Shown here one piece after another: positions 5,131 through 64,000 of a DNA stretch of 64,000 nucleotides (positions within the stretch are counted from its first letter, which is position 1; each line of letters opens with the position of its first letter). Source of the DNA: a virus; IMG/VR virus record IMGVR_UViG_3300045988_135453. One strand, given 5' to 3'. Both the position numbers and the translations under genes were made by a program. The notes below the pieces were generated by a model. The model was not told the origin of the DNA. It ran no database searches and saw nothing but the letters and a program-made list of their open reading frames with translations.

Positions 5131-6060
5131 CTATCGGGGTGGCGGTTTGAACTTTCCTTGTGAATCTTCGGCTACAGAAATGTATGGCACCACTTCTTCG
5201 CGAATGATGTCGAGAAATAGTTGTGCGGCACGCTTCTTGGGAACGTCCTGCATACAGTGGGCGTTGCTCATCAACTGCTGTTCGAGTCCTACGATTGGAC
5301 GCGCTACAAGGGTAGGGTGGTTGCGCAGGTAGAGCTTAGGCATGAAGGTGACGTACTTGGTTTCTTCCACCGAAGCAAGAGCTTCGTCAGGGTCGCTGAT
5401 GATGCACTTGATGTTGAGCTTATATAGGTCACGCTGTATGTATTGATGAAAAGTCTCAATGGCACGTTCACCTACGTCAGGCATGATGATGGGGTGCTTC
5501 AGAATGTCCTCATACGACACCTTTGAGAGTGAGGCAAGCGGATGGGTGTCGCGCATAATAGCATACACGTTAAAGGGTATGCAGGGTCTTGACTCTATTC
5601 CTTCGTGACGGTATGCCATATTCATTGTGAAAGCAAGATCTAACATGTGCGCCTTTAGCGACTGATTTAGAAAATATGCTTTGGTGAAGTCAGCATTGAT
5701 ACGCACGTTGGGGTATCTCTCCATGAATATCAATGCTGCCATACGAATATACGGAGAAATAAACGAGCCTACACCAATGCGCAATTCGCCGGTCATGCAG
5801 TTGTTGAGGGCATTGATTTGCTCTTTGCAGTCCTCGGTCTGCTTCAGTATCTCTTTGGCACGAGGCAACAGGGCTTCACCACTTTCGGTGAGCATAATGC
5901 CGTGTGATGTGCGAATAAGCAATTTGCAGCCCAACTCGTCCTCCAGGGCACGAATGTGCTGGCTTACCGCCGACTGGGTGACGCAACAACGTGTGGCAGC
6001 TGTACTAAACGACTTTGTTTCGGCGACATAAACAAAGGAGCGTAAATGTCTTAGTTCCAT
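5131..6060 (-). CDS. LysR-family transcriptional regulator
   Basis: 309 aa. N-terminus MELRHLRSFVYVAETKSFSTAATRCCVTQSAVSQHIRALEDELGCKLLIRTSHG is the canonical LysR wHTH signature. Length and C-terminal half fit a LysR substrate-binding domain. Confidence 0.9.
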   Translation of the reverse strand: MELRHLRSFVYVAETKSFSTAATRCCVTQSAVSQHIRALEDELGCKLLIRTSHGIMLTESGEALLPRAKEILKQTEDCKEQINALNNCMTGELRIGVGSFISPYIRMAALIFMERYPNVRINADFTKAYFLNQSLKAHMLDLAFTMNMAYRHEGIESRPCIPFNVYAIMRDTHPLASLSKVSYEDILKHPIIMPDVGERAIETFHQYIQRDLYKLNIKCIISDPDEALASVEETKYVTFMPKLYLRNHPTLVARPIVGLEQQLMSNAHCMQDVPKKRAAQLFLDIIREEVVPYISVAEDSQGKFKPPPR

Positions 6061-25718: not shown

Positions 25719-26791
25719 ATGAAAATAGGACTCATAGACGTGGATGGGCGACACGGCAAAAAGAAATGGGGAGCTACGATATACCCTAACGTGGCTCTCG
25801 GCAAGATTGCCCGTTGGCACACGATGCGGGGAGATGAAGTGGAATGGGCACAGCCTACCGACCTTTTCGACAGGCATCATTACGATATACTGTATGCCAG
25901 CAAGGTTTTCAACTTTTCGCCCGACATCGACTTTCGGCAGTTCTCCTACGACCGACTGGAGAAGGGTGGAACGGGCTACGACATCTATAAGCGTCTACCC
26001 GACGAGATAGACCGAATACAACCACTATACGAGTTGTTCCCATGGGTGCCAAAGGACCATGCTTACGGCAAACTGACCGAGGGCTGTCCCAACAAGTGTT
26101 TTTGGTGTGTGGTGCCAAAGAAGGAAGGGTTCATCCGTCCGTACATGGATATAGAAGAGATAGCCATCGGGGGCAGAACGCACGTTGTGCTAATGGATAA
26201 CAACATCCTTGCAGCTGGCGACTATGCAAAAGAACAGTTGGAAAAAATCATTCGGGGGGGTATCATATCGACTTCAATCAGGCGATGGACGCACGGCTTG
26301 TCACTACCGAATATGCAGAACTGTTGGGCAAAGTGAAATGGATAGACTCTCGCATCCGCTTCGGTTGCGACACCACGGCACAGATAGCGGAATGTGAACG
26401 AGCCATGAAGCTAATCAATGATGCAGGATTCCGTGGCGAATACTTTCTCTATACCATGATAGGCGGAAAGAACGACTTCCGAGAATGTTACCACCGTCTA
26501 CACTACTGGTGGGAGCGACTGCAACGCTTCCGCAAGAACCATGAAGGCAGAGCCGTGTATGCCTACGCACAACCATACCGCAACCCTACAAATCCAAATC
26601 ACGCCATCCCCGAATGGCAAAAGGATATGGCCCGATGGTGCAACAAGCGAATGATTTTCTGCACCACCGACTTTAAGGACTTCATGCCAAGAAAAGGATT
26701 CAAATGTGAGTGGTATCTGAGGGAGTACAGAGTGAGCGAAACAAAACAGAAGTATCTGTTTGATGCAAACAATGGGCATCGTGGGGTATAA
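25719..26791 (+). CDS. radical SAM enzyme, reading frame broken at a G7 run
   Basis: Track ORFs 25719..26336 and 26285..26791 are two halves of one protein. The first half has MKIGLIDVDG... (B12-binding-like) and the CPNKCFWC cluster (CxxxCxxC). After G7 (26254-26260), the -1 frame reads YHIDFNQAMDARLV..., the expected continuation. One extra G would give a single ~357-aa ORF. Confidence 0.7.
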
Positions 26792-26828
26792 ACAATGGGC
26801 ATCGTTTGTATGTAACAATGGGCATCGT
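26768..26828 (+). repeat. three direct copies of AACAATGGGCATCGT at exact 23-nt spacing
   Basis: Copies at 26768-26782, 26791-26805 and 26814-26828, spanning the radical SAM stop codon (26789-26791). The small hairpin TCGTTT gaaa AAACGA follows. Confidence 0.85.
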
Positions 26829-26911
26829 TTGAAAAAACGACTTTTCGACAGTTTCCATCAAAAGAGTAAAAGACATTATACAAATAACGACAATTTAAAA
26901 TGTAAGTGACA

Positions 26912-27193
26912 ATGATAACAATAAAAATCAAGACATGGAAGGACTGGAAGAAGGACTTCATCGATTGGGTAAAGGAACCACGGCGCAAGAGGTGCAAGGA
27001 GTATGTGAACTATATGGAGGCTTTACAAAATCAGACTCTCTACAAAATAATAGAGGACACTTGTGATAAATACAATAATATGCGTGAGGGTCAAATCCAA
27101 GACATCACCGAAGCAGTAGACAAATGCGTGGCTGCTTGTGCTAAGAAAACTCGCGAGCTTATCGATGATAGTCAGCCCGTAAAATTCTTCTGA
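26912..27193 (+). CDS. hypothetical protein (93 aa)
   Basis: The track ORF starts at GTG 26906; the first ATG is at 26912 (MITIKIKTWKDW...). Confidence 0.5.
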   Translation: MITIKIKTWKDWKKDFIDWVKEPRRKRCKEYVNYMEALQNQTLYKIIEDTCDKYNNMREGQIQDITEAVDKCVAACAKKTRELIDDSQPVKFF

Positions 27194-27234
27194 GACTGTA
27201 ACTTCCATTATAAGCAAGAAAAACTTTACGCAAC

Positions 27235-27843
27235 ATGAACAACAATATAAAAAGAAAGGACTGGGTGGGCGGCTCGGCTGCTGTGTTCAAGACATTAGGC
27301 GCAAGCAACCATACGGATGCGGATCGGCAGCGGGAGGATTACTACGCCACTGAGCCGAAGGCGACGGAATGGCTGTGCAAGCTGGAGCGGTTTGAGGGCA
27401 GGATTCTTGAGCCGTCGTGTGGCGAGGGGCACATGAGCGAGGTGCTGAAGGCAGCAGGGTATGAGGTGGTGAGCCGCGACCTTGTGGATAGAGGGTACGG
27501 CGAGGTGGCCGACTTCCTCGCAATAGATAACTTGGCGTGGGACGGAAACATCGTCACCAATCCGCCATACAAATATGCGCAGGAGTTTGTGGAGAAGGCT
27601 CTGAGCATCATTCCCGAAGGAAAGAAGGTGGCGATGTTCCTGAAGCTGACTTTTCTCGAAGGCAAGGCCCGGCGCGCTCTCTTCCGTTCTACCCCCCCCA
27701 TTCGTGTTTGGGTAAGCTCGTCGCGACTGAAATGTGCCATGAATGGCAACTTCGACAAATACGGCAGCAGCGCAGCGGCTTACGCCTGGTTCGTGTGGGA
27801 GAAAGGATATAAAGGCGAGACAACTGTGAAATGGTTTAACTGA
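27235..27843 (+). CDS. N6-adenine DNA methyltransferase (NPPY type)
   Basis: 202 aa. Motif I ILEPSCGEGHM and motif IV IVTNPPY. Contains an in-frame C8 run (27692-27699). Confidence 0.8.
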   Translation: MNNNIKRKDWVGGSAAVFKTLGASNHTDADRQREDYYATEPKATEWLCKLERFEGRILEPSCGEGHMSEVLKAAGYEVVSRDLVDRGYGEVADFLAIDNLAWDGNIVTNPPYKYAQEFVEKALSIIPEGKKVAMFLKLTFLEGKARRALFRSTPPIRVWVSSSRLKCAMNGNFDKYGSSAAAYAWFVWEKGYKGETTVKWFN

Positions 27844-27865
27844 TAGATTTACGAAACAACAAAGC

Positions 27866-28615
27866 ATGATAGAACTGAATAAGATATATAATGAAGACTG
27901 CCTGAAAGGGATGAAAAGGATTCCGGACGGGAGTGTGGATTGCGTGATATGCGATTTGCCGTATGGTACTACTGCTTGCGCTTGGGATAGCGTAATTCCT
28001 TTTGACAAGTTGTGGGAGCAATACAGAAGAATTATAAAGCGAAACGCTCCAATTGTTCTGTTCGGCAATGAGCCTTTTAGCACATTTCTGAGAGTTTCAA
28101 ATATTAAGAATTGGAAATATGACTGGATTTGGGACAAGAAAATGAAAGTGGGTTTTTTGAACGCAAAAAAAAGACCTCTCAAGCAGTATGAAAATATATC
28201 TGTTTTCAGTTATGGCGATTGCATCTACAATCCTCAAATGACTAAAGGTTTATTTAGAAACAAAAAGTCGTATGATAATAGAGAGGGAAATGGGGATGGC
28301 GTGTATCGTAAGTTTGGAAACATTGATGTAAAAAATGACATTTACTATCCTTCAAACTTTTTGGAGTATAGCAATGCCGCACAGAAAGGTAAGATTCATC
28401 CCACACAAAAGCCCGTAGCTCTCATTCAGTACCTCATTCGCACTTACTCCAACGAGGGCGACACCATATTAGACAACTGCATGGGCAGCGGCACCACTGC
28501 CATTGCAGCCATTCGCGAGAAGCGCAACTTCATCGGCTTCGAGCTCAACAAGGAGTATTACGACAAGGCTTGTAAGCGCATCAAACTGGAGCTGGCACAG
28601 CCTACCCTCTTCTGA
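27866..28615 (+). CDS. DNA methyltransferase, N4/N6 (PF01555-like, beta class)
   Basis: 249 aa. DPPY-type motif CDLPYG near the N-terminus, IHPTQKP and SAM motif DNCMGSGTTAIAA near the C-terminus. Confidence 0.85.
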   Translation: MIELNKIYNEDCLKGMKRIPDGSVDCVICDLPYGTTACAWDSVIPFDKLWEQYRRIIKRNAPIVLFGNEPFSTFLRVSNIKNWKYDWIWDKKMKVGFLNAKKRPLKQYENISVFSYGDCIYNPQMTKGLFRNKKSYDNREGNGDGVYRKFGNIDVKNDIYYPSNFLEYSNAAQKGKIHPTQKPVALIQYLIRTYSNEGDTILDNCMGSGTTAIAAIREKRNFIGFELNKEYYDKACKRIKLELAQPTLF

Positions 28616-28884: not shown

Positions 28885-29047
28885 GAATTTTGAGTTTTGA
28901 ATTGTCGCCGTTGGCAATTTTGAATTATCCAATTTTGAATTATTCAAAACCAAGCAGGAGAAACGCAGCAACAACTCAAAAATCAAAAACTCAAAATCGG
29001 CATAGCCGATAATTCAAAACTCAACACTCAAAACTCAAAACTCAAAA
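28885..29047. repeat. palindromic TTTTGA(G/A)T-octamer / hairpin element, complete copy A (between the small ORF and terL)
   Basis: The left half has TTTTGAGTTTTGAATT words plus the hairpin ATTGTCGCCGTTGGCAAT (28901-28918). The right half has AATTCAAAACTCAAAA words plus the hairpin ATCGGCATAGCCGAT (28996-29010). It ends at the terL ATG. Confidence 0.85.
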
Positions 29048-31046: not shown

Positions 31047-31128
31047 GAGTTTTGAATTTTGAGTTTTGAATTTTGAATTGTGCGCTACGCGCATTTTGAA
31101 TTATTCATTTTTGAATTTAGAATTTTGT
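31047..31128 (+). repeat. TTTTGA(G/A)T-octamer / hairpin element, half copy B (after terL)
   Basis: GAGTTTTGAATTTTGAGTTTTGAATTTTGAATTG, then hairpin TGCGC tac GCGCA (31081-31093), then TTTTGAATTATTCATTTTTGAATTT. Confidence 0.85.
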
Positions 31129-38746: not shown

Positions 38747-38899
38747 ATTTTTGAGTTTTGAATTATGAATTATGCGCGTCGCACATTTTGAGTTGTCGAG
38801 TTTTGAATTTTGAGTTTGTTTATCATCTTAATTCAAAAATGAATAATTCAAAATGCGCTTGCGCATAATTCAAAACTCAAAACTCAAAACTCCTAATTC
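38747..38899. repeat. palindromic TTTTGA(G/A)T-octamer / hairpin element, complete copy C (between the ssb-like gene and dnaN)
   Basis: The + strand left half carries TTTTGAGTTTTGAATTATGAATT and the hairpin ATGCGCGTCGCACAT (38772-38786). The right half carries AATTCAAAA... and the hairpin ATGCGCTTGCGCAT (38853-38866), then ...AATTCAAAACTCAAAACTCAAAACTCCTAATTC. The two halves are inverted copies of each other. Confidence 0.85.
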
Positions 38900-40443: not shown

Positions 40444-43400
40444 TCAGAACGGCATATTCTCCTCATCCTTTATATCTGGAACACTTGCCGCTGTGCTATT
40501 TGTTGCCACAAATGGAGCCATTCGCCTACCCTGTTTGCGCGTCTTGTTGTTCTCCCAGCGCTCCTTTTCTTCATCGGTGAGCTGTATGATATTACCGTCA
40601 TCATCGCGGTATGGCAGCGGGTCGGGCTGCTCGGCATATTGCTTAGCTATACGCTTGAGCTCTCGGTAGTCCTTCGGTATTACGTCCTTGCCAGGACGGT
40701 AGAAGAAGAAAACGTGCTTCGACGTTTGCAAGTAGCGGATGAACTTTGGCTCGATGGTATTGTCGTTTTCCCACTCGCGTCCGGTGAAGTATTCCTGCGT
40801 AACCCATGCCTGTAGCTTGAAACATTTGCGCTGTTTGTCGCTCTCGTTCTCGAAGAGGTGCTTCGGGTTGCACGTTATCGACATATTCTCGCAATAGTCG
40901 TATATCTTCTTCTTGAAGGTAGCACGGCTATACTCTTTACTCTTACCCTCGGAAGCATCTGCCCAATCACGCATAAACTCGTTGAACATATCGTCCGTAC
41001 ATATCGGCACTCCGTAGACCTCGTTACGAGAGAAGAACCACTCGAAATAGCGCACGATGCTCTCGGTGAGCTTCTGCACCATCTGGCGGCGACGCACATT
41101 GCCTTGCGGTGCAATGGCAAAGGTATGGTAACGCATCAGGAACTGCACTGCAAGGGCGCAAATGTAAATGGCTTGGTTACGGTCAGTGTCGTCAATTTCC
41201 TCCGGCTTATCACTGAAGTTCTTCATCAATGCCGACATCAGACGTGCTGCCTTACGCTTCTGCGGATTGGCTCGGGCAAAACGATTCGAGAAGCTGACGA
41301 GAGGGAAACGTCCTACGGTCGAATCATCATCATCGGACAGCGGATAGTTGCAGGTGATGACGTGTTTAGGGGCATCTTTTAGTGGGACAAGTTCCTGGTC
41401 TACGCTCTTCTTTTCTACCGTCAGTCCTGTAGTAACCATATTATAAAAATACTTCATTGGGAATCCTTTTTGCTTATCCTCCCAGTGTAGAACCCTATAC
41501 TTGAACGGCTCGCTGAGTAGATTGCCCAGCACAAACCTTGCATCGTTAATATGCTCCATACGCTTCATGTCAATGTCGAGCACGTTCACAGCACTGCCAA
41601 CTACCAGTTTCACGATGATAGACTTGCCCGAACCACCAGTAGCCTGTTTCTCGTCGGGAATGTCATCTTCAAGGAAATACGGACAGACTGGCATCATACC
41701 CTTGTCGGAACGATAACACAAACGTCCAATGCCTGAAATCATATTGACGAAATGAGCACCGATAACGGCTTTTTCCAATTCCGTCAATTCTTCTTTGTTG
41801 CGCTGCGCTTCCTGCTCTCGTTCCCAAAGAACATTGGAGCATCCTCGCACGATACGCAAAATGGGCCAAAGATCTTTTTCTTGCTTCCCCTGCCAATTGA
41901 CATCCCAACGGTAGGTTTGCGCCCATTCTTCAAGGTCGGCTTTCATCTGCCCTATCTCGAATGTAGAGAACACCAAAGACCCGTCCTCATTTTGCATCTT
42001 CTCCTTCTTGTCTATCGCTTCCAGTCGATCGCGGTATTCCTGTCGCTCAGTTATGGTGAAAGGTGTCTTAAACGCTCGCATCGTGAAGTCAAACGGCTTC
42101 TTGGCAAGCGAGGGGATGAAGAAGTTGATGTCGTCATAAGACACCGTGCGGATGCTGTCGGGCGTTATCTTCAATGCAACATTATTGAAGTAGAAATACT
42201 CAGTCTTTGCATCAAACGCATCGGCAAAATTTATCACCATGCTCTGTAAACCTCCGGCAGACTTTTCCGTAAAGGCCTTGTCCACCATATTAGCACAGTC
42301 GGACATCAAGCGTCTCTCTGGGTCGCTATATCGCCATGCCTGTTTTGTATATTTCAACAGTAATGTCTTTGCTGCCTGGATAATGCTCTTTACGTCAATA
42401 TACTCCACGAAGCATTTGTTCAGGTGGATATATTGACCAACAAGGTCGGTGCTCTCGGGGTCTATCATGCGGTAATATCCGCGTGCCGTCATAAAGAGCC
42501 ACAATCGCGTAGGCGACACCTTGCAGGTAGGTGGCTTTAGCTTGCCGCTTCTGGGATCACGCGGCCATTCTATATCAAACGGCTCTGTGTTGCTCGCTCC
42601 ACGCAAACTGGAGTAAAGCGGTAGACGGACATCATGGTCGAACTGGAAGTTCTCTTCTGCGTTCATGGTGTACGCCAGCAGATAGTCGCGCACGCTTCGG
42701 GGAGAGCAGCCATATAGCCACTGCCAGCGTCGGCAATAACGTGACCGGAACCCTTCAGGTAACATGGCATAGTACAATGAGCTGAACTTGGTGCATATAG
42801 CTCCGCAGTCGCGCTGTGAGACAATATCGTTGGGGTATAGGATGATGACGTGCTCGGCAAAGCGGTTCATTTTCTGAAATTGAACACCGCTAAAGTCAAG
42901 ATTCTCACGTTTCCACTCGCCATGCTCTATATACCAAAAGTTTCTCCGTCCAATGGAGAAAGCGACATGATACCAACAGAAATCTTGGAAATGCTGGTCT
43001 TCTATCTTGTCAAGGCGCAAGGAACGCATTGCATAATACACGCTCAATGCGTCTTCGGGTGTGCGGCAAAAAACGATGTTGCGAGCCTTTATCTCGGCAG
43101 TGGGTATCTTCTTCTTTTCTTGCTTGAACGTACCCTTGCCCACACCATCCTTGTCTTCACGTTCCACCCATATTTCCTTCTGCTCGGTGTATTTCTCTTC
43201 AGGGTCGTACTTAGCGATGGCAGCATGTACGGCTGTGTTGTCGCTCTTGCGCTGATCCATTGCATATACGAACACGTTGTCACCCATGAGCCACTTGCTC
43301 ACCTTCCTCACGCTGTGCTCCTCGGCGGTAGAGAACACTATCGGCTCGCTCCCAGCCATTGCCGGACGGAAGAAACATCCGTATGAGTTTTGCGGACCTA

Positions 43401-44172
43401 TCTCCTGCGAGGCAAAGCACACGAAAAGCGGATTCCAGGGTGTGCCGTGGATAATCTCGCTAACATGCTGACCGTCGCGTATCACATCAGGCAGCGTCAC
43501 GCTCAGAAGGGAATAGATACGGAAGTCCTTGTTAAGCATGTCGGGCGTAAACGTACTGCCAAAGCCGAAACGAGGCAGCCCCCTGTCAAGCGTCACCTCA
43601 CAGCCTAGGGCTGCAAGCTCTTGTGGAGAGAAGTCGGTCTTCGGCATAAATGAGAATGTCTCGATGGTCTGCTGTGCCTGAGTACGATAGTCCATCTTGG
43701 CAAACACCTCTGGGAAGGCACGGCGCACTTCGTCGGTATCGCCATACACATCCTTTACGAGTCTTTGGCAGATACACTGAAGACTATATCCGTGCATCGG
43801 AAGATTCATCTTGGCTGCGTACAGCTCGAGGGCTCCGTAGCCGGTCTTGCCCGTGCGGGTGCATTTCCACTTTACGGCATCATGCTCTGCCATTCGGTTG
43901 TCATCAACGCCCACGCCCGAATACAGTCCACCTCGCTCATTTTCATAGATAATGAAGTGGGGTGTCTGCTTGACATCGGCATCCGCGTCCTGTCCCTTCT
44001 TGCAGATAGGACAGAAACACGCGGTCTGACCCTCGATGCGCTGCTCGTTGGCAGACTTCACGAGAAGATGCAGGTCGATGTTAGCGAGACGATTTATTAT
44101 CGGGTGATAGAACATGATTGCAGTCGTTGTTTTAAAAGGATAGCCGGTGATTTGCCAAACGTTTTTCGACAT
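40444..44172 (-). CDS. primase-helicase-like P-loop NTPase (1242 aa)
   Basis: N-terminal Cys/His cluster CFCPICKKGQ...KQTPHFIIY (DnaG zinc-ribbon-like CPxC...TPxF). Walker A ATGGSGKS around aa 830 with a downstream HWED Walker-B-like motif. Acidic C-terminal tail ...DIKDEENMPF. Confidence 0.6.
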   Translation of the reverse strand: MSKNVWQITGYPFKTTTAIMFYHPIINRLANIDLHLLVKSANEQRIEGQTACFCPICKKGQDADADVKQTPHFIIYENERGGLYSGVGVDDNRMAEHDAVKWKCTRTGKTGYGALELYAAKMNLPMHGYSLQCICQRLVKDVYGDTDEVRRAFPEVFAKMDYRTQAQQTIETFSFMPKTDFSPQELAALGCEVTLDRGLPRFGFGSTFTPDMLNKDFRIYSLLSVTLPDVIRDGQHVSEIIHGTPWNPLFVCFASQEIGPQNSYGCFFRPAMAGSEPIVFSTAEEHSVRKVSKWLMGDNVFVYAMDQRKSDNTAVHAAIAKYDPEEKYTEQKEIWVEREDKDGVGKGTFKQEKKKIPTAEIKARNIVFCRTPEDALSVYYAMRSLRLDKIEDQHFQDFCWYHVAFSIGRRNFWYIEHGEWKRENLDFSGVQFQKMNRFAEHVIILYPNDIVSQRDCGAICTKFSSLYYAMLPEGFRSRYCRRWQWLYGCSPRSVRDYLLAYTMNAEENFQFDHDVRLPLYSSLRGASNTEPFDIEWPRDPRSGKLKPPTCKVSPTRLWLFMTARGYYRMIDPESTDLVGQYIHLNKCFVEYIDVKSIIQAAKTLLLKYTKQAWRYSDPERRLMSDCANMVDKAFTEKSAGGLQSMVINFADAFDAKTEYFYFNNVALKITPDSIRTVSYDDINFFIPSLAKKPFDFTMRAFKTPFTITERQEYRDRLEAIDKKEKMQNEDGSLVFSTFEIGQMKADLEEWAQTYRWDVNWQGKQEKDLWPILRIVRGCSNVLWEREQEAQRNKEELTELEKAVIGAHFVNMISGIGRLCYRSDKGMMPVCPYFLEDDIPDEKQATGGSGKSIIVKLVVGSAVNVLDIDMKRMEHINDARFVLGNLLSEPFKYRVLHWEDKQKGFPMKYFYNMVTTGLTVEKKSVDQELVPLKDAPKHVITCNYPLSDDDDSTVGRFPLVSFSNRFARANPQKRKAARLMSALMKNFSDKPEEIDDTDRNQAIYICALAVQFLMRYHTFAIAPQGNVRRRQMVQKLTESIVRYFEWFFSRNEVYGVPICTDDMFNEFMRDWADASEGKSKEYSRATFKKKIYDYCENMSITCNPKHLFENESDKQRKCFKLQAWVTQEYFTGREWENDNTIEPKFIRYLQTSKHVFFFYRPGKDVIPKDYRELKRIAKQYAEQPDPLPYRDDDGNIIQLTDEEKERWENNKTRKQGRRMAPFVATNSTAASVPDIKDEENMPF

Positions 44173-48498: not shown

Positions 48499-48573
48499 GT
48501 GTTTTAATATATCTTGTTGGTTTCTGCATACAAAAGTAAAAAAAGTTGCTGACACAAACAGGACATATTAAAA

Positions 48574-48605
48574 CACCGCCTACCCTTGGGAATGGGTAAG
48601 CGGTG
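48574..48605 (-). terminator. terminator after the rep gene
   Basis: CACCGCcTACCC / GGGTAaGCGGTG form an 11-bp stem with one mismatch. TTTTAATAT follows on the minus strand. Confidence 0.6.
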
Positions 48606-48612
48606 TGAATTT

Positions 48613-50169
48613 TTATTGCTTTACGATCTTATATTTTAAGGTTATTGTCTTGCCGAATACCTTTGCCAAACATTTTTTAGTATGATTTAAAACGGCAACA
48701 TCCGTGAAATGTGCTTCTATCATTTCCACTTGGGCCTTGCTCGTAGCACCAAGACATACTGTACCGTTCTCAAGCGATATGTACCTAACCCTTCTCAAGT
48801 CAGAAGCAAGTTGTTTGTCAATTAAGTTTAAAAACATCTGCCATTCTTTTTCCCAAGGTTCCTCCTCAACTTCGGCAAAGTTAAACGTCTGCTGCCGTGG
48901 CTCGGGCTTCGCACTATGCTGCTTTATCCATTGCTCCATGATGTAAAACACGAACTCTTCCATCGTACCACTCCATCTATGCGGCTGCTCCACTGCCTTG
49001 TGCACACCATTATAGGCATACGTCTTGAAGTCGTTCCAAAGGTCTTCAGGAACACCGGCAACAAACGTTTTGAGCCGTTCTTCGTCGAGTGTAGGATATA
49101 GCGACATCAGCTTGGCGCACAAACGCTTTTCTGACGAGCCACGATGCAGTTCCAGATCTCGCGCCACACCCAACGGCGTGCGCTTGATATGAAACTTTAT
49201 CTTTTCCGGATTGCCTCGTTTTGCGCTGCCTCTATAAATAGGCTCGTAGCCTTTTTTGTCTGGGTCAACACACGAGAGCATTATCTCTATCTTGTTTTCC
49301 TCGCACAGTCGTTCCATGTCACCACGCGCCACATCCAACACCTGTTTGCGGAACTGTGAGAATTTTTGATATTTCTCAGTAGTCACGACCTTTGCGGGTT
49401 GCGTATCGTCGCTTTTCTCAACGTCTACCTTAAACATACCCAACGCATCTTTCAACTCATGATAGTCTATAACCGGGTGCATCTGCCCTTTGCTCGCATA
49501 CTTCATCAACAGGAGGTAAAGACGTGACGTGTAAGCCGAGTTGCAGAAATAGGCTATTCGTTCAAGATGATTGAAATATCCGTCCGTCATATCAAACACG
49601 GCTTTTGCTACCTCGATGTTGATCGTCACCTCAATATATCCGTCACGTCTAAACTTGCGCACCTCCTGTCCGTCCTCGTCTAACTTTGTACCGCTATCCC
49701 CCGAATAGTTAAGGTCTTCTCCTTCTCGCGACGTGAAATTCTTAGGAATAAATATCTTACTGAAGATAGGCATGTAGTCCTCACCTTTTCTAAGTCCTGT
49801 TGCTGGATCAAAACGCGGAAGGTGAAACTCAATTTTCTTCATTTGGTTTATCACCTTCACCGACTCGTCATAATGACTACTGTCTATACCAAAGTCAGCC
49901 AGACGCAAACGTATCGATCCCATCTTTAGCAGGTCTTCTTTCGTTATGCCTCCATTCGGACGTTCTTTGCTCAAATATCGGTGCTCATTCAAGAACTTGG
50001 CAAAATGGTCTTGCAGTCGTCCGCTTACCAACAACATAACATCCTGCTGTATGAGGGAATAGCTTTTAGCGTATGATGTATAGTTGACGGGCGTGTTAAT
50101 CCAGCGCAGCTCATTTAGGGCAAGTTGTAGTTGGTTTTCTCTATCTTCTTTTCTCGCTTTCTTTGCCAT
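48613..50169 (-). CDS. plasmid-type replication initiator (Rep_3/RepB-like)
   Basis: 518 aa. ...LALNELRWINTPVNYTSYAKSYSLIQQDVMLLVSGRL... and ...FCNSAYTSRLYLLLMKYASKG... resemble iteron-binding Rep_3 initiators. The start codon lies 2 nt from the first iteron. Confidence 0.6.
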   Translation of the reverse strand: MAKKARKEDRENQLQLALNELRWINTPVNYTSYAKSYSLIQQDVMLLVSGRLQDHFAKFLNEHRYLSKERPNGGITKEDLLKMGSIRLRLADFGIDSSHYDESVKVINQMKKIEFHLPRFDPATGLRKGEDYMPIFSKIFIPKNFTSREGEDLNYSGDSGTKLDEDGQEVRKFRRDGYIEVTINIEVAKAVFDMTDGYFNHLERIAYFCNSAYTSRLYLLLMKYASKGQMHPVIDYHELKDALGMFKVDVEKSDDTQPAKVVTTEKYQKFSQFRKQVLDVARGDMERLCEENKIEIMLSCVDPDKKGYEPIYRGSAKRGNPEKIKFHIKRTPLGVARDLELHRGSSEKRLCAKLMSLYPTLDEERLKTFVAGVPEDLWNDFKTYAYNGVHKAVEQPHRWSGTMEEFVFYIMEQWIKQHSAKPEPRQQTFNFAEVEEEPWEKEWQMFLNLIDKQLASDLRRVRYISLENGTVCLGATSKAQVEMIEAHFTDVAVLNHTKKCLAKVFGKTITLKYKIVKQ

Positions 50170-50170
50170 A

Positions 50171-50253
50171 CCTACGTTTTTATTTACTTAAACCTACGTT
50201 TTTATGTACCAAAACCTACGGATTTGTTTACCAACTCCTACGTTTTTGTCTAC
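50171..50253 (+). repeat. four direct 17-nt iterons at 22-nt spacing (ori copy A, left array)
   Basis: CCTACGTTTTTATTTAC (50171), CCTACGTTTTTATGTAC (50193), CCTACGGATTTGTTTAC (50215), CCTACGTTTTTGTCTAC (50237). Confidence 0.9.
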
Positions 50254-50297
50254 TTCGTATGCTCTAACTCGTTGGTTTTCAGCTTCTCAAAAAATCT

Positions 50298-50381
50298 TTA
50301 ATATAATATAATTACAATCTATTATTTTATTCCGTTTTTAAAACAAAAAAAAATCCATATCTTATAATTATATTATATTAA
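50298..50381. repeat. 17-bp perfect inverted repeats flanking a 50-nt AT-rich core (ori copy A)
   Basis: TTAATATAATATAATTA (50298-50314) and its exact complement TAATTATATTATATTAA (50365-50381). Core at 50315-50364. Confidence 0.9.
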
Positions 50382-50425
50382 GAGGTTTTAGAAGAATTGA
50401 TTATCAGTTAGTTATCTACGGTGAA

Positions 50426-50508
50426 GTAAACAAAAACGTAGGAGTTGGTAAACAAATCCGTAGGTTTAAGTAAACAAATCCGTAGGAGTTGGTAAACAAA
50501 TCCGTAGG
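50426..50508 (-). repeat. four iterons in inverted orientation at 22-nt spacing (ori copy A, right array)
   Basis: GTAAACAAAAACGTAGG (50426) and GTAAACAAATCCGTAGG (50448, 50470, 50492). A partial fifth copy, GTAAACCA, lies at 50514. Confidence 0.9.
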
Positions 50509-50573
50509 TGTTGTAAACCAAAACAGCACACTTTTGTAGTGACTTGGTAAAAACTTTATTAGGATTTTACATA

Positions 50574-51131
50574 TTACAAGTCCTCGTTGAGTATCGCCTC
50601 GCTTTTTTCAAAGTTATCCATATCGGTGTACATCAGACAAATAGAAACACCAGACCCGAAGCTGGGCGTTTTCAATGATTGAAGGATAAAACCAATGCTG
50701 TTGCCACCTGTTTCGTCAGGAATATTAAACGCCAGTCCAATAACATCGCCGTCTGGACCTCGGTTTTCCTCGGGCGTGGTGTTAGGATATTTCCGTTGCA
50801 AACTCTCGGTTAAGTTCAAGAAGGGGATATGAGCAGACTCTACAGTTGGATATTGCATTTCAACCGCAGCACTGAACACCATTTTGCTTTTAGGATTATA
50901 AGCAACATTAATCGTAGCGTTCTCACCCATAAACGTGCCGTTAAAGACTCTACAGCCTTGCCCAGCTGCTTTCGACTTCGCTGCATCGTATGTCACGCCC
51001 TTAGCCTTCAGCTTCAAGGCAAAGTTGTCCACCGTTCCGTCTAATGGTATGCCCATAAACTTCATGTGCTGCTGTGCGCTTGCTGCCATACACAGGCAGA
51101 ACGCGAACAATACTGATATTATCTTCTTCAT
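50574..51131 (-). CDS. secreted protein of unknown function between the two ori copies
   Basis: 185 aa with signal peptide MKKIISVLFAFCLCMAASAQQ. No other motif recognised. Confidence 0.6.
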   Translation of the reverse strand: MKKIISVLFAFCLCMAASAQQHMKFMGIPLDGTVDNFALKLKAKGVTYDAAKSKAAGQGCRVFNGTFMGENATINVAYNPKSKMVFSAAVEMQYPTVESAHIPFLNLTESLQRKYPNTTPEENRGPDGDVIGLAFNIPDETGGNSIGFILQSLKTPSFGSGVSICLMYTDMDNFEKSEAILNEDL

Positions 51132-51146
51132 AAGAAATTAGTCTAT

Positions 51147-51407
51147 TACATTTGTTCCTATTTACGTTTTTATATGCCAAAACCTACGTTTTTGTTTACC
51201 AACTCCTACGTTTTTGTTTACTTCGTATGCTCTAACTCGTTGATTTTCAACTTCTCAAAAATTCCTTAACATAATATAATTATAAGATATGAATTTTTTC
51301 GTTTTAAAAAGGAATAAAATAATAACTTATAATTATATCATATTAAGAGGTTTTGGAAGTGTTAATTATCAATTAGTTATCTACAATGATGTAAACAAAT
51401 CCGTAGG
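51147..51407. repeat. second, shorter ori-like module (copy B)
   Basis: One degenerate iteron (51147) plus two exact iterons CCTACGTTTTTGTTTAC (51183, 51205). Same spacer TTCGTATGCTCTAACTCGTTG. IRs TTAACATAATATAATTA (51266-51282) / TAATTATATCATATTAA (51330-51346). One inverted iteron GTAAACAAATCCGTAGG (51391-51407). Confidence 0.85.
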
Positions 51408-51471
51408 TGTTGCAAACCCAAACAGCACACTTTTGTAGTGACTTGGTAAAAAGATTTAGTAGGATTTTACC

Positions 51472-51894
51472 TTACTTATTCCGCTCAACAAACTCATGTA
51501 TTGCTTGCAAAGCGAGGTCCTTCAACGTGCGCCCAGTTTGAAATTTCATCATTGTCAACTGCATATAGTCCTCCATAGGCACGTTTACGACGATGCCGTT
51601 CTCAGTCTTTTTCCCCTTTGTAGCAAATGAGGTGTCTGTCAGGGTTCTTCTATGATTACGCCCTTTGGCTGCTTGTGTCGAGGTGTTTTTGGCTCTATTC
51701 TCTGCTGCTTCACTCTCTTTATTATCGACTACTGCCTCATTCGTAGGCTCAGTTGTTGGTTTTCTTTCCGACTTGGCCACAACAGCAGAAGATTCCTCTT
51801 GCTGTGTACTCTGTGTCAAAAGGGGTGCTTCGCTGTTGTCCCTTATATCGTCTGCCACTTTTTTTACTGGCGAATCGTTCCAATTAAATCCCAT
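51472..51894 (-). CDS. ParG/RHH-like centromere-binding protein candidate
   Basis: 140 aa. Disordered charged N-terminal two thirds, then IVVNVPMEDYMQLTMMKFQTGRTLKDLALQAIHEFVERNK (strand-helix-helix pattern). Directly downstream of parA. Confidence 0.5.
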   Translation of the reverse strand: MGFNWNDSPVKKVADDIRDNSEAPLLTQSTQQEESSAVVAKSERKPTTEPTNEAVVDNKESEAAENRAKNTSTQAAKGRNHRRTLTDTSFATKGKKTENGIVVNVPMEDYMQLTMMKFQTGRTLKDLALQAIHEFVERNK

Positions 51895-51906
51895 GGTTAT
51901 CTCTTT

Positions 51907-52749
51907 TTATTGATTCTTGAATGTGTCAACTATTTCTTTTGCAAACGCCTCATAGCTCTGAGCTGCGTCACAGTCGGGAGCATAAGTGAAGATGTCCTGC
52001 ATCATCGCCTGGGCTTCCACAATCTTTGTGCGACGCGGAATCTCTGTCTTGAACACATAACTGCCGTATTCCTCATCAATATGTTTCGAGAAGCCCACGC
52101 TTGCCTTTGTGCGCTTGTCAACCATCACCTTCAGCAGTCCGCGAAGTTCAAGGTTGGGGTTAATCTCGTTTCTCACTTCCTTTGCCCAGTGTATCACGCT
52201 TGACGAGCCAAATGTTGGCAGCGCTTCAAGCTGCATGGGGATGATGATGCCTGTTGCCACAGACATGGCGTTCTTGGTCACGAGGTTCATGGCAGGAGGA
52301 CAGTCGATGATGATATAGTCGAAGGCTTCTATTACACTCTGCTTGCCGCCTTTGTCTTCTGGGAGCACTACGGGTAATGCGAACAACTTACACAGCACTT
52401 TTAATGGGTTCAACTCACGCAGCAGAAACGGCTCCACGTTTAGCATGTCTTCAGATGAAGGAGCGATAAAAAGGTTGCCGTAATAGTCCTGCTTGTCAAT
52501 GCTCACCTGGTACACAGGCATCGCAGTCTTGTCTACCAAGGCTTCGTACATTGTGCCGTGCTTGTCCTGACGATCACGCCAGCCGCACAGCAACGAAACG
52601 TTCGCAACCTGAGCATCGAGGTCTACAATAAGCACTCGCATGTCTGGGTTCAGCTTGATCAATCCGCAAGCCAAATTGTGGGCAGTTGTGCTCTTACCCA
52701 CCCCGCCTTTGTCATTCACAATGGCGAGAACTTCTCTTAGTCTTTCCAT
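51907..52749 (-). CDS. parA: ParA/Soj-family partition ATPase
   Basis: Deviant Walker A LAIVNDKGGVGKSTTAHNLA, then VLIVDLDAQ. The track start 52758 is TTG; the ATG at 52749 (MERLREV...) is preferred. Confidence 0.9.
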   Translation of the reverse strand: MERLREVLAIVNDKGGVGKSTTAHNLACGLIKLNPDMRVLIVDLDAQVANVSLLCGWRDRQDKHGTMYEALVDKTAMPVYQVSIDKQDYYGNLFIAPSSEDMLNVEPFLLRELNPLKVLCKLFALPVVLPEDKGGKQSVIEAFDYIIIDCPPAMNLVTKNAMSVATGIIIPMQLEALPTFGSSSVIHWAKEVRNEINPNLELRGLLKVMVDKRTKASVGFSKHIDEEYGSYVFKTEIPRRTKIVEAQAMMQDIFTYAPDCDAAQSYEAFAKEIVDTFKNQ

Positions 52750-52804
52750 AATTATCAATATTAAAATGTTTTACGCTGCAAATTTAAGAATAATATTTAA
52801 CCTT

Positions 52805-53035
52805 ACCAAATTTTTATCTACTTATTTATTTACCTATTTACTTACGCATTTATCTATCTACCTATTTACCTACTTACCTAAATATTTATCTAAGTATTTA
52901 TCTAAATATCTAACAACCTATTTACATACATAAGTAAGTAAGTAAATATGTAAATAAAAGCCTATATAGTTATCTATGTAGATAAATAAATATATAGGTA
53001 AATAAATATATAAGTACGTTCGTAAATACTAACGT
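52805..53035. repeat. centromere-like array of short AT-rich repeats upstream of parA
   Basis: At least 8 forward TATTTAC / TTTATCTA words (52813-52925), followed by at least 5 inverted GTAAATA / TAGATAAA words (52938-53030). No ORF. Confidence 0.5.
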
Positions 53036-53082
53036 AAGTACTAAAATACAGAAATATAAAAGTATTAAAGTATAAAAGTATC

Positions 53083-54265: not shown

Positions 54266-54333
54266 AAAATTCAAAATTGATAATTCAAAATCGCGAAGCG
54301 ATAACTCAAAACTCAAAATTCAAAATTCAACAC
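54266..54333 (-). repeat. TTTTGA(G/A)T-octamer / hairpin element, half copy D
   Basis: The minus strand reads TTGAATTTTGAATTTTGAGTTTTGAGTT, then hairpin ATCGC ttc GCGAT (54290-54302), then TTTTGAATTATCAATTTTGAATTTT. It lies directly after the stop of gene 54334..54579. Confidence 0.8.
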
Positions 54334-60752: not shown

Positions 60753-61436
60753 TTACTTCCAATTTTCCGCTAATATTTTTCTCACGCTATAATAAGGCGT
60801 GTTAAACGGATATTTCACTTCGTTGATGACGTACACCACGGTCGGCTCCGTCATGCGCAATGTGTCGCGACACTCCACACGGCCGTACATGCCATGTGCC
60901 ATGAGGTTCAGGGCGCACATCTTGCAAGCAATAGGATCGCTGTCTTGTGCCACATACTCGAAGCGTCTGCCAGCCGAATGGTCCAGCTTGCTCTTCTCCA
61001 TATAGTGAGCCAGGAGCAAACGTCCGCTACCTGCTGCGCAGTCATTCACCTTGCCATGATCCCCGGCTCCCAGTGTGCTAATCCGTGCCATAAGGTCCGA
61101 AATGCTCTGAGGCGTGAAGAACTGCCCCATCTTCGATGCCTTGCCACGGCTCAGATACATATCCTCGTACAGGTTGCCGAACACGTCCAGCCACTCGCCA
61201 CGCTCCATCGCTGTTGTCACATCCTTTAGCCACTGAAGGGCGAGAACGGCAAACTCAGGATTCTGCTCCGTGCAGCTCAAAATGTGTTGGCTATATTCAA
61301 CGGTGCCAGCCTTAAAAGCATCAACGCTGAAGAACTCTATAAGATAGTCACAGAAGTCACTGAGAGCCATTTCCTGTAGTCTGCTGTGTTTGTTTGCCTG
61401 TTCGGTCAATACGTCGATATAATTCTTTTTATCCAT
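60753..61436 (-). CDS. HsdM/N6-DNA-methylase-like protein lacking the catalytic NPPF/Y motif (truncated)
   Basis: 227 aa. GQFFTPQSISDLMARI (motif X), NDCAAGSGRLLLAHY (motif I) and YVAQDSDPIACKMCALNLMAHGM are typical of type I / IIG N6-methylases. The protein ends about 35 aa later (...ECRDTLRMTEPTVVYVINEVKYPFNTPYYSV...) without an (N/D)PP(F/Y) motif. Confidence 0.6.
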   Translation of the reverse strand: MDKKNYIDVLTEQANKHSRLQEMALSDFCDYLIEFFSVDAFKAGTVEYSQHILSCTEQNPEFAVLALQWLKDVTTAMERGEWLDVFGNLYEDMYLSRGKASKMGQFFTPQSISDLMARISTLGAGDHGKVNDCAAGSGRLLLAHYMEKSKLDHSAGRRFEYVAQDSDPIACKMCALNLMAHGMYGRVECRDTLRMTEPTVVYVINEVKYPFNTPYYSVRKILAENWK

Positions 61437-63980: not shown

Positions 63981-64000
63981 CTCGTAGGCTACATTCTCTC

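Follow-up and report, generated by a model that had tools for sequence, protein, structure and literature searches.

A plasmid-type replication and partition unit in the genome of a tailed gut phage, a probable phage-plasmid of Prevotella/Segatella

The 64,000-nt stretch of the IMG/VR virus record IMGVR_UViG_3300045988_135453, which is referred to as the window in the following, carries at positions 48573-53080 a maintenance block with all genes on the minus strand. We have little doubt that this block is a plasmid-type replication and partition unit. It is part of the genome of a tailed phage of approximately 102-106 kb, assembled in hundreds of gut metagenomes, which probably persists as a low-copy circular plasmid prophage, i.e., as a phage-plasmid. 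A previous reading of the bare letters (the sequence-only reading) had placed four plasmid-style components within 48574-53035, namely an initiator, iterons, a ParA with its partner and a centromere-like repeat array, and all four were found there. In order of transcription, the block consists of the repeat array (53080-52791), a TAAATTTG box (52786-52779), parA, the partner gene, a truncated origin (51470-51160), an open reading frame (ORF) of 185 aa (51131-50574), the full origin (50570-50170), rep, and a terminator (48606-48573). The truncated origin copy and the 185-aa ORF between both copies had been overlooked before, as had the fact that the window covers only approximately 63% of the genome. 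The features are as follows.

48573..48606, minus strand: intrinsic terminator directly 3' of rep, with a 13-bp stem including 8 G-C pairs and a T-run
48613..50169, minus strand: rep, 518 aa, iteron-binding initiator as judged by fold and profile
50171..50253, minus strand: proximal iteron array, four 17-nt cores with 22-nt spacing in the same orientation as rep
50254..50425, no strand: AT-rich core, candidate DNA-unwinding element, 22.7% GC (inner 116 nt, 15.5% GC)
50426..50508, plus strand: distal iteron array, four cores with 22-nt spacing in the orientation opposite to that of the proximal array
50524..50543, plus strand: single perfect iteron of a sister Rep type, CAGCACACTTTTGTAGTGAC, by sequence match
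50546..50570, no strand: small palindrome GGTAAAA-N11-TTTTAC, situated where the upstream transcription unit ends
50574..51131, minus strand: 185-aa ORF with an N-terminal signal peptide
51160..51470, no strand: truncated second copy of the origin, sharing 79-97% identity with copy 1
51472..51894, minus strand: partition partner, 140 aa, with N-terminal helix 9-22, disordered linker, and C-terminal beta-alpha-alpha unit (~100-139) resembling a ribbon-helix-helix (RHH) fold
51907..52749, minus strand: parA, 280 aa from ATG, alternative start TTG at 52758, deviant Walker A motif KGGVGKST
52779..52786, minus strand: TAAATTTG box, candidate promoter element of parA, 29 nt upstream of the parA ATG
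52791..53080, no strand: centromere-like array, 20% GC, with repeats of the GDTAAATA / AGATAAATA type, located at 52794-52902 (minus strand) and 52981-53004 (plus strand)

By fold and profile, the rep product is a predicted iteron-binding initiator with tandem winged-helix domains (WH1-WH2). A profile derived from 27 members of the Rep family matches Pi of R6K (2nra_C) with an E-value of 2.7e-6. The AlphaFold2 (AF2) model of Rep (predicted local distance difference test score, pLDDT, 74.5) was compared to the PDB using Foldseek, and the 16 best matches are Pi, RepE, and further complexes of Rep proteins with iterons; the highest-ranking one has E 1.8e-6 and a template modeling (TM) score of 0.67 on the target. 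By profile and by fold alike, the complex of R6K Pi with its iteron (2nra) ranks first. Three homologues with 43-45% identity (P0072, P0103, and P0106) carry the domains PF01051 and PF21205, and the score of the window Rep against the NCBIfam model RepM (27.5) is below the cut-off of 250. The Rep_3-like initiator of the sequence-only reading is thus recovered as a WH1-WH2 protein by fold and family profile, although its own Pfam score is sub-threshold.

In the model, the WH1-WH2 part extends to approximately residue 330 and is followed by a helical linker (332-418) and by a C-terminal alpha/beta domain (~440-515), which resembles domain I of DnaA and DciA. Foldseek matches of the last ~80 residues to both proteins are weak in terms of E-value (0.04-0.4), with probabilities of 0.97-1.0. 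Due to this resemblance, a role of the C-terminal domain in helicase recruitment is tentatively proposed. Similar to Pi and mini-F RepE (2nra, 1rep, and 2z9o), Rep combines the WH1-WH2 fold, including a profile match to WH2 of Pi, with 22-bp iteron sites. In contrast to these initiators, it possesses approximately 190 additional C-terminal residues including the DnaA-domain-I/DciA-like domain, and identity is restricted to 10-15%. The C-terminal domain (~440-518) is common to Rep types with differing DNA-binding halves and occurs in Rep proteins of Segatella plasmids as well.

For the iteron consensus GTAAACAAAWMCGTAGG, 13 matches with at most three mismatches were found in the window compared to 0.42 expected, and none of 100 shuffled sequences gave 13 matches. 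Eight of these matches constitute two inverted arrays of four with an exact spacing of 22 nt, which flank a core of low GC content (22.7% in the origin core compared to 46.2% in the whole window). Three matches belong to the second origin copy, which also contains one degenerate iteron, and the remaining two, with three mismatches each, are situated outside of both origins at 623-639 and 52817-52833. The eight 17-nt iterons (four direct and four inverted) around an AT-rich core, as described from the sequence before, were therefore found together with a core of 15.5-22.7% GC. Likewise, the adjacency of the rep ATG to the nearest iteron was observed; the gap of 2 nt given previously has to be corrected, since the last proximal iteron core ends 1 nt before the start codon.

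The second origin copy comprises iterons at 51161-51177 (the degenerate one), 51183-51199, 51205-51221, and 51391-51407, i.e., in a 3+1 arrangement, an AT core of 21.3% GC, a site of foreign type at 51423-51442 (see below), and a palindrome at 51446-51470. It is present solely in the closest relatives (loci L001, L002, L017, and L043). The 185-aa ORF stands to this copy as rep stands to origin copy 1. In approximately half of the relatives this ORF occurs between the partner gene and the origin, and no family match was obtained for it in Pfam, PHROGs, or NCBIfam.

The assignment of ParA is supported by matches to Pfam AAA_31 (3.5e-34) and to phrog_164, annotated as ParA-like partition protein (1.7e-47). 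The Walker A motif is situated at residues 12-19 of the 280-aa protein, which lacks an N-terminal DNA-binding domain and aligns in full length to Soj/ParA structures. The closest solved structures are Soj (1wcv) and ParA (8ray), and weaker sequence matches were obtained to delta of pSM19035 (2oze) and ParF (4dzz). As judged from these alignments, the ParA ATPase named in the sequence-only reading is Soj-like.

An RHH-type partner had been suggested downstream of parA, and a gene is indeed located at this position. The partner protein alone matches no family in Pfam, PHROGs, or NCBIfam. In case of the profile of its family, RHH proteins were matched over the C-terminal 40 aa (2k9i, E 0.0034; 7by2, E 0.0068), and one family member matches PF01402 with E 0.024, passing no curated threshold. 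In the single-sequence AF2 model, a helix at the N-terminus is separated by a long disordered stretch from two helices at 107-120 and 124-139 with pLDDT 86-88. An alignment of 38 distinct partner proteins shows conservation of the last 45 residues, with the pattern G-I/V-x-x-x-V-P...TG...LALQA. Judging by family profile and model, the partner appears to be RHH-like.

Upstream of parA, the postulated array with resemblance to a centromere was found as dyad repeats at 52791-53080, for which Tandem Repeats Finder reported periods of 8, 12, and 36 nt. Seven of the 18 matches of GDTAAATA in the window fall into 210 nt of this array, and the strand of the repeats flips around 52940. The TAAATTTG box next to it is kept in relatives and matches TAnnTTTG, the consensus of the Bacteroides -7 promoter motif. 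A scan for sigma-70 promoters did not exceed the shuffled expectation; the sigma-70 model does not apply to Bacteroidota.

Type Ib partition systems, such as ParF-ParG-parH of TP228 and delta-omega of pSM19035, consist of a small Walker-type ParA and an RHH protein with a flexible N-terminal tail. Their centromeres are arrays of short direct and inverted repeats with a period of 4-8 nt, which are located upstream of the operon and double as operator. The combination of ParA, RHH-like partner, and upstream repeats fits such a system, in which the partner would bind to the repeats. With 140 aa, the partner has twice the length of its counterparts in TP228 and pSM19035 and contains an extended disordered linker; the repeat motif bears no relation to theirs. 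A further difference to ParF is given by the closest solved structures of the window ParA, which are chromosomal Soj proteins.

Rep, parA, and the partner gene occupy the same position in all of the approximately 62 viral relatives for which at least 6 kb of upstream DNA was available. Further Rep types were surveyed by anchoring on the neighboring gene that encodes a 1242-aa protein. In 40 out of 40 Rep loci the layout of four inverted iterons, AT core, four direct iterons, and ATG is constant, with the start codon 1-3 nt behind the last iteron. At least six types of the Rep N-terminal domain were distinguished, each paired with a distinct iteron sequence, and the symmetric arrangement is the same in all of them. 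In the type-2 group (L050-L056), the winged-helix region is approximately 28% identical to that of the window Rep, designated type 1, and the C-terminal half 55-80%. The boundary of the swap between both types is located at the end of WH2. The type-2 iterons read CAGCACAyWWWTGTAGTGA and show the same 22-nt phase.

For ParA, three main types were observed, and Rep and Par cassettes occur in all combinations. The closest Rep relatives of the window, for example, share 98-99% identity in Rep, with a ParA that is just 43% identical. In a similar manner, the upstream repeats change with the RHH beta-strand of the partner: GIVVNVP occurs with GTAAATA / AGATAAA, GITIYVP with AAACAAA / ATAAACA, and SVKVTIP with ACGTAGG / GTACGTA. 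The natural recombinant L040 combines a ParA of type B with an RHH of type A and carries repeats of type A, which thus track the RHH and not ParA. Co-variation of Rep with iterons and of RHH with repeats is what cognate protein-DNA pairs predict, and free reassortment of Rep and Par is what is predicted for an incompatibility-driven diversification of co-resident plasmids.

Two perfect type-2 iterons (none expected) occur in the type-1 window, at 50524-50543 and 51423-51442, i.e., one per origin copy and outside of the distal array. Vice versa, the type-2 origins contain a palindromic pair of type-1 iterons at the equivalent place (L050, 9527-9583). Other Rep types possess neither kind of foreign-type iteron. 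These sites may represent either a recombination scar or a functional cross-type site. Their conservation was considered as evidence and discarded as uninformative, since within the type-1 group conservation amounts to 80-100% over the entire origin. Between L050 (9544-9563) and L055 (9549-9568), the 20-nt spacer that separates the two inverted type-1 iterons appears as its reverse complement, which suggests hairpin-mediated template switching or an inversion.

Among the phage genes that had been reported for the same window (capsid, protease-scaffold, terL, tape measure, and holin), the protease, terL, and the tape measure were found again: a head protease (phrog_53), a terL product with 27-29% identity to annotated large terminases, and a tape measure protein of 2062 aa (PF10145). 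Tail fibre and lysozyme genes are situated just beyond the window in relatives. Replication genes of the phage encode a beta clamp, a primase-like protein, an exonuclease, and the P-loop protein of 1242 aa (40444-44172, minus strand), which contains a zinc-ribbon-like motif and a GGSGKS P-loop and matches only a PHROG family of unknown function. PDB sequence searches gave no match for this protein and for a 385-aa protein. The 1242-aa protein may be a primase-helicase of the phage and hence a second, lytic initiator.

The exact window Rep protein is encoded on at least 24 gut-metagenome contigs, and the longest of these (102,156 bp) shows the same gene order as the window over its length. Further assemblies, of 99-106 kb, are broken at differing points, and the window spans these breaks, as expected of a circular or circularly permuted genome. 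In the viral contig collection, 40 loci with Rep relatives were found on contigs of up to 102 kb, and the relatives are classed as viral. No match was obtained by megablast of 12 kb and by tblastn of Rep against phage records, and by blastn of the block against plasmid records. Membership in the "Flandersviridae" was considered and ruled out, as this family possesses PolA and DnaG and lacks partition genes. Rep proteins of the phage type (83-90% identity) were found solely on contigs of Prevotella metagenome-assembled genomes. Since the host assignment is based on such contigs, it is indirect, and points to Prevotella/Segatella of the human gut.

Distant relatives of Rep (25-33% identity) were identified by tblastn and by scanning the genomes of species representatives; they are encoded on plasmids of Segatella copri and on replicons of isolates labeled "extrachromosomal". 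Plasmids and large extrachromosomal elements of S. copri were described by Blanco-Miguez et al. 2023 (PMC10635906). On plasmid CP085934 of strain DSM 18205, parA is followed by a gene for a 99-aa partner, seven 22-nt iterons with two inverted copies, and rep. The same order of parA, small partner, iterons, and rep is shared by the S. copri replicons CP085934, CP152353, CP152485, CP146521, and CP146525 and by the window. Furthermore, the 22-nt iterons of these replicons start with GTAAA(C/T)A and end beside the start of rep, inverted copies being found on the other side of an AT-rich stretch, and their Rep shares the winged-helix region and the C-terminal domain with the window Rep. On the other hand, identity to the window amounts to just 25-33% for Rep and 36-38% for ParA, the S. 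copri plasmids carry metabolic genes and no phage genes, their Rep is approximately 100 aa shorter, and the origin contains seven direct and two inverted iterons instead of four and four.

Based on this anatomy, the following course of events is proposed. Rep monomers would bind to both inverted arrays, in each of which the four iterons follow one another at a phase of two helical turns, whereupon the core of 15-23% GC between the arrays would melt. The C-terminal domain of Rep would recruit the replicative helicase, and the replisome of the host or of the phage would copy the circle. Rep probably also acts as its own repressor, because the start codon of rep directly adjoins the proximal array, and the iterons of the second origin probably act like incA of P1, by titration or handcuffing. 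Dimers of the RHH partner would bind to the dyad array upstream of the parA promoter, which would result in a partition complex and in repression of the operon. The N-terminal tail of the partner is presumed to stimulate the Soj-like ParA, which would segregate the copies over the nucleoid.

The strongest rival to a plasmid prophage, though itself unlikely, is a non-temperate phage in which Rep and the iterons serve as ordinary lytic or carrier-state initiator, and ParA and the RHH partner distribute replicating genomes or keep a pseudolysogenic carrier state. This explanation gains from the core position of the module, which occurs in all relatives as a lytic origin would, and from the failure to find an S24-type CI repressor. 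In contrast, a ParA with RHH partner and upstream repeats is a low-copy segregation device without known lytic role, the combinatorial swapping of Rep and Par is an incompatibility signature that is relevant only to stably co-resident replicons, and stable S. copri plasmids are the nearest relatives of the module among cellular replicons. In addition, the phage possesses genes of Cro/CI-type helix-turn-helix (HTH) proteins, including a divergently transcribed one situated just outside the window. Several observations weigh against the phage-plasmid lifestyle itself, and some of them equally favor a lytic initiator. The phage encodes parts of its own replisome, so that Rep could simply be the lytic initiator. 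Neither a toxin-antitoxin system nor another addiction module was seen. A host-free circle of ~100 kb would be assembled alike from virion or lytically replicating DNA. No cultured isolate with the phage is contained in the collections searched. The match of the window Rep to Pfam Rep3_N (E 0.0015, 19.4 bits) stays below the curated cut-off of 22.4, and the RHH matches of the partner reach only E ~0.003-0.007. Finally, an integrase could be situated in an unsampled stretch, because the genome walk via proteins of the relatives, which yielded pieces without overlap at the DNA or protein level, did not close.

This last point leaves a narrow margin for an ordinary integrating temperate phage with integrase and attP in the unexamined part and rep and par as accessory genes, which we regard as very improbable. 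Profile scans against Pfam and PHROGs revealed no integrase or recombinase in the 64-kb window, in agreement with the sequence-only reading, and none in approximately 48 kb of the flanks of relatives, in which ORFs of at least 130 aa were scanned. The module is universally conserved and hence not accessory. A conserved 142-aa structural protein of the phage was located in 856 assembly blocks, of which 200 have a longest contig of 50-200 kb and none has a contig above 200 kb; the longest contigs with this protein measure 103-106 kb, and for Rep homologues of at least 78% identity the longest contigs do not exceed 102.8 kb. If a prophage of such frequency integrated, it would be expected at least sometimes inside chromosomal contigs. 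The ends of the window do not overlap, because it was cut from a larger contig, and contig k119_130206, which was sought at a gene expected near its start as proof of circular closure, was not among the places returned. Somewhat less improbable, albeit still very unlikely, is a large plasmid related to the Segatella extrachromosomal elements that carries a defective prophage or particle-producing genes. Its replicon type is that of the S. copri plasmids and large extrachromosomal elements (PMC10635906), the phage is known from its genes alone, and many of the phage genes are without family assignment; opposed to this are the strict synteny of the head, tail, packaging, and lysis genes in many independent contigs, the genome size, tightly clustered at 100-106 kb as under a packaging limit, and the viral classification of the relatives. 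An assembly chimera or a chance repeat array is hardly credible, as the same synteny was obtained by different assemblers from dozens of samples, and the counts of iterons, type-2 sites, and GDTAAATA are far above the shuffled expectation. The extrachromosomal low-copy replicon already proposed from the sequence is thus favored by the fixed position of the module, the co-variation of proteins and repeats, the layout shared with S. copri plasmids, and the lack of any contig above 200 kb.

P1 is a tailed phage of ~90-100 kb with a low-copy plasmid prophage, the iteron initiator RepA (incC and incA iterons), and the partition system ParA-ParB-parS. Additional iterons outside of its origin (incA) control the copy number, and the specificities of rep and par differ between P1 and its relative P7. 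The P1 system is of type Ia: ParA carries an HTH at its N-terminus, ParB is likewise an HTH protein, and the parS site is located downstream; a separate lytic replicon and an addiction module have been identified. The phage of the window resembles P1 in its size, in the pairing of an iteron initiator with a ParA system, in relatives of differing rep and par specificity, and in the additional iterons outside of the origin, i.e., in the second copy, for which a role in copy-number control is proposed. It differs from P1 in the small ParA, the RHH partner, and the upstream repeats (type Ib), and neither a lytic replicon nor an addiction module was identified.

The SSU5-type and other phage-plasmids of enterobacteria were reportedly treated by Pfeifer et al. 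in 2021, a study cited in 10.1101/2023.11.10.566511. These phage-plasmids combine Rep_3/RepFIB and ParAB without an integrase. The study of 2021 reportedly defines phage-plasmids by phage genes and plasmid rep/par genes on one replicon, absence of integrase and att, an extrachromosomal lysogen, and infectious particles. In the present case, structural and packaging genes of a phage and plasmid rep and par genes are found on one replicon, with synteny in many independent contigs. A phage backbone with Rep_3-class initiator and partition operon, for which no integrase was found, is shared with the SSU5 type; the phylum, the partition subtype, and the symmetric inverted iteron arrays are different, and there is no sequence similarity.

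With regard to Bacteroidota, the prototypic crAssphage was proposed to be a phage-plasmid that is extrachromosomal and does not integrate (Schmidtke et al. 2024, PMC10983915). The evidence for this case consists of two RepL genes and of culture dynamics, and a term search in the article returned no iterons, and "ParA" and "partition" only where P1 is described. Both crAssphage and the phage of the window are gut phages of Bacteroidota, but their backbones are unrelated. For the "Flandersviridae" with PolA and DnaG, a P1-like persistence was raised and no partition genes were found (Benler et al. 2021, PMC8008677). In a survey of the gut, 87% of the phage-plasmid-like viral operational taxonomic units were placed with relatives from Firmicutes and Actinobacteria (10.1101/2025.02.07.636470). 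No description of the present phage family was found in the literature searched, the coverage of which is incomplete. The view of the sequence-only reading that this lifestyle is poorly documented in Bacteroidota holds for the same literature, in which the RepL-based case of crAssphage (PMC10983915) is the sole claim.

The persistence of abundant phages that do not integrate is an open question in the gut, and the maintenance block offers an explicit, classical mechanism in a widespread Prevotella/Segatella phage family. If the phage is maintained as proposed, iteron/ParA phage-plasmids are extended into the Bacteroidota. Moreover, the phage replicon is tied to the replicons of the large extrachromosomal elements of S. 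copri. Few genetic tools exist for Segatella/Prevotella, and at least six Rep/iteron specificities together with several Par specificities represent candidate compatible replicons for the genetics of this group. It is tempting to speculate, though we consider it improbable, that the family consists of mutually competing plasmid prophages that swap Rep and Par specificities as independent cassettes, thereby evading or imposing incompatibility, and that the foreign-type iterons are functional decoys which titrate or sense the initiator of a rival. As part of the same speculation, the units of specificity would be the winged-helix domains of Rep with the iterons, the RHH with the repeats, and ParA with the tail of the partner. 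Such decoys would amount to superinfection exclusion at the level of plasmid replication.

Several observations concern other parts of the phage genome. A gene for a LysR-family regulator (HTH_1 and LysR_substrate; 5131-6060, minus strand) is embedded in the head-gene module and is kept in every relative seen. In some relatives (L236 and L242, 6840-8072), an IS605-type OrfB/TnpB gene (410 aa) is situated beside it. Intergenic arrays of the heptamer TCAAAAC/GTTTTGA and of AAAATTC (nine copies) occur at 29014-29047, 31047-31079, 38786-38817, 38870-38892, and 54266-54330, and several of these arrays are located at strand switches around terL. Genes related to DNA modification are dense (25719-28615 and 60753-61436) and encode a radical SAM protein, two DNA methyltransferases, and an N6 methylase; a C5 methylase gene follows just outside the window (L011, 15658-16983). 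Nucleotide metabolism is represented by ThyX, MazG, and guanylate kinase in the window, and RtcB is encoded just outside of it in relatives. Just past window position 64000, a gene for a Cro/CI-type HTH protein of 97 aa and another one for a protein of 189 aa constitute a divergent pair (L057, 6463-7632), which faces the early genes over an intergenic region of ~640 nt and is a candidate for the lysis-lysogeny switch.

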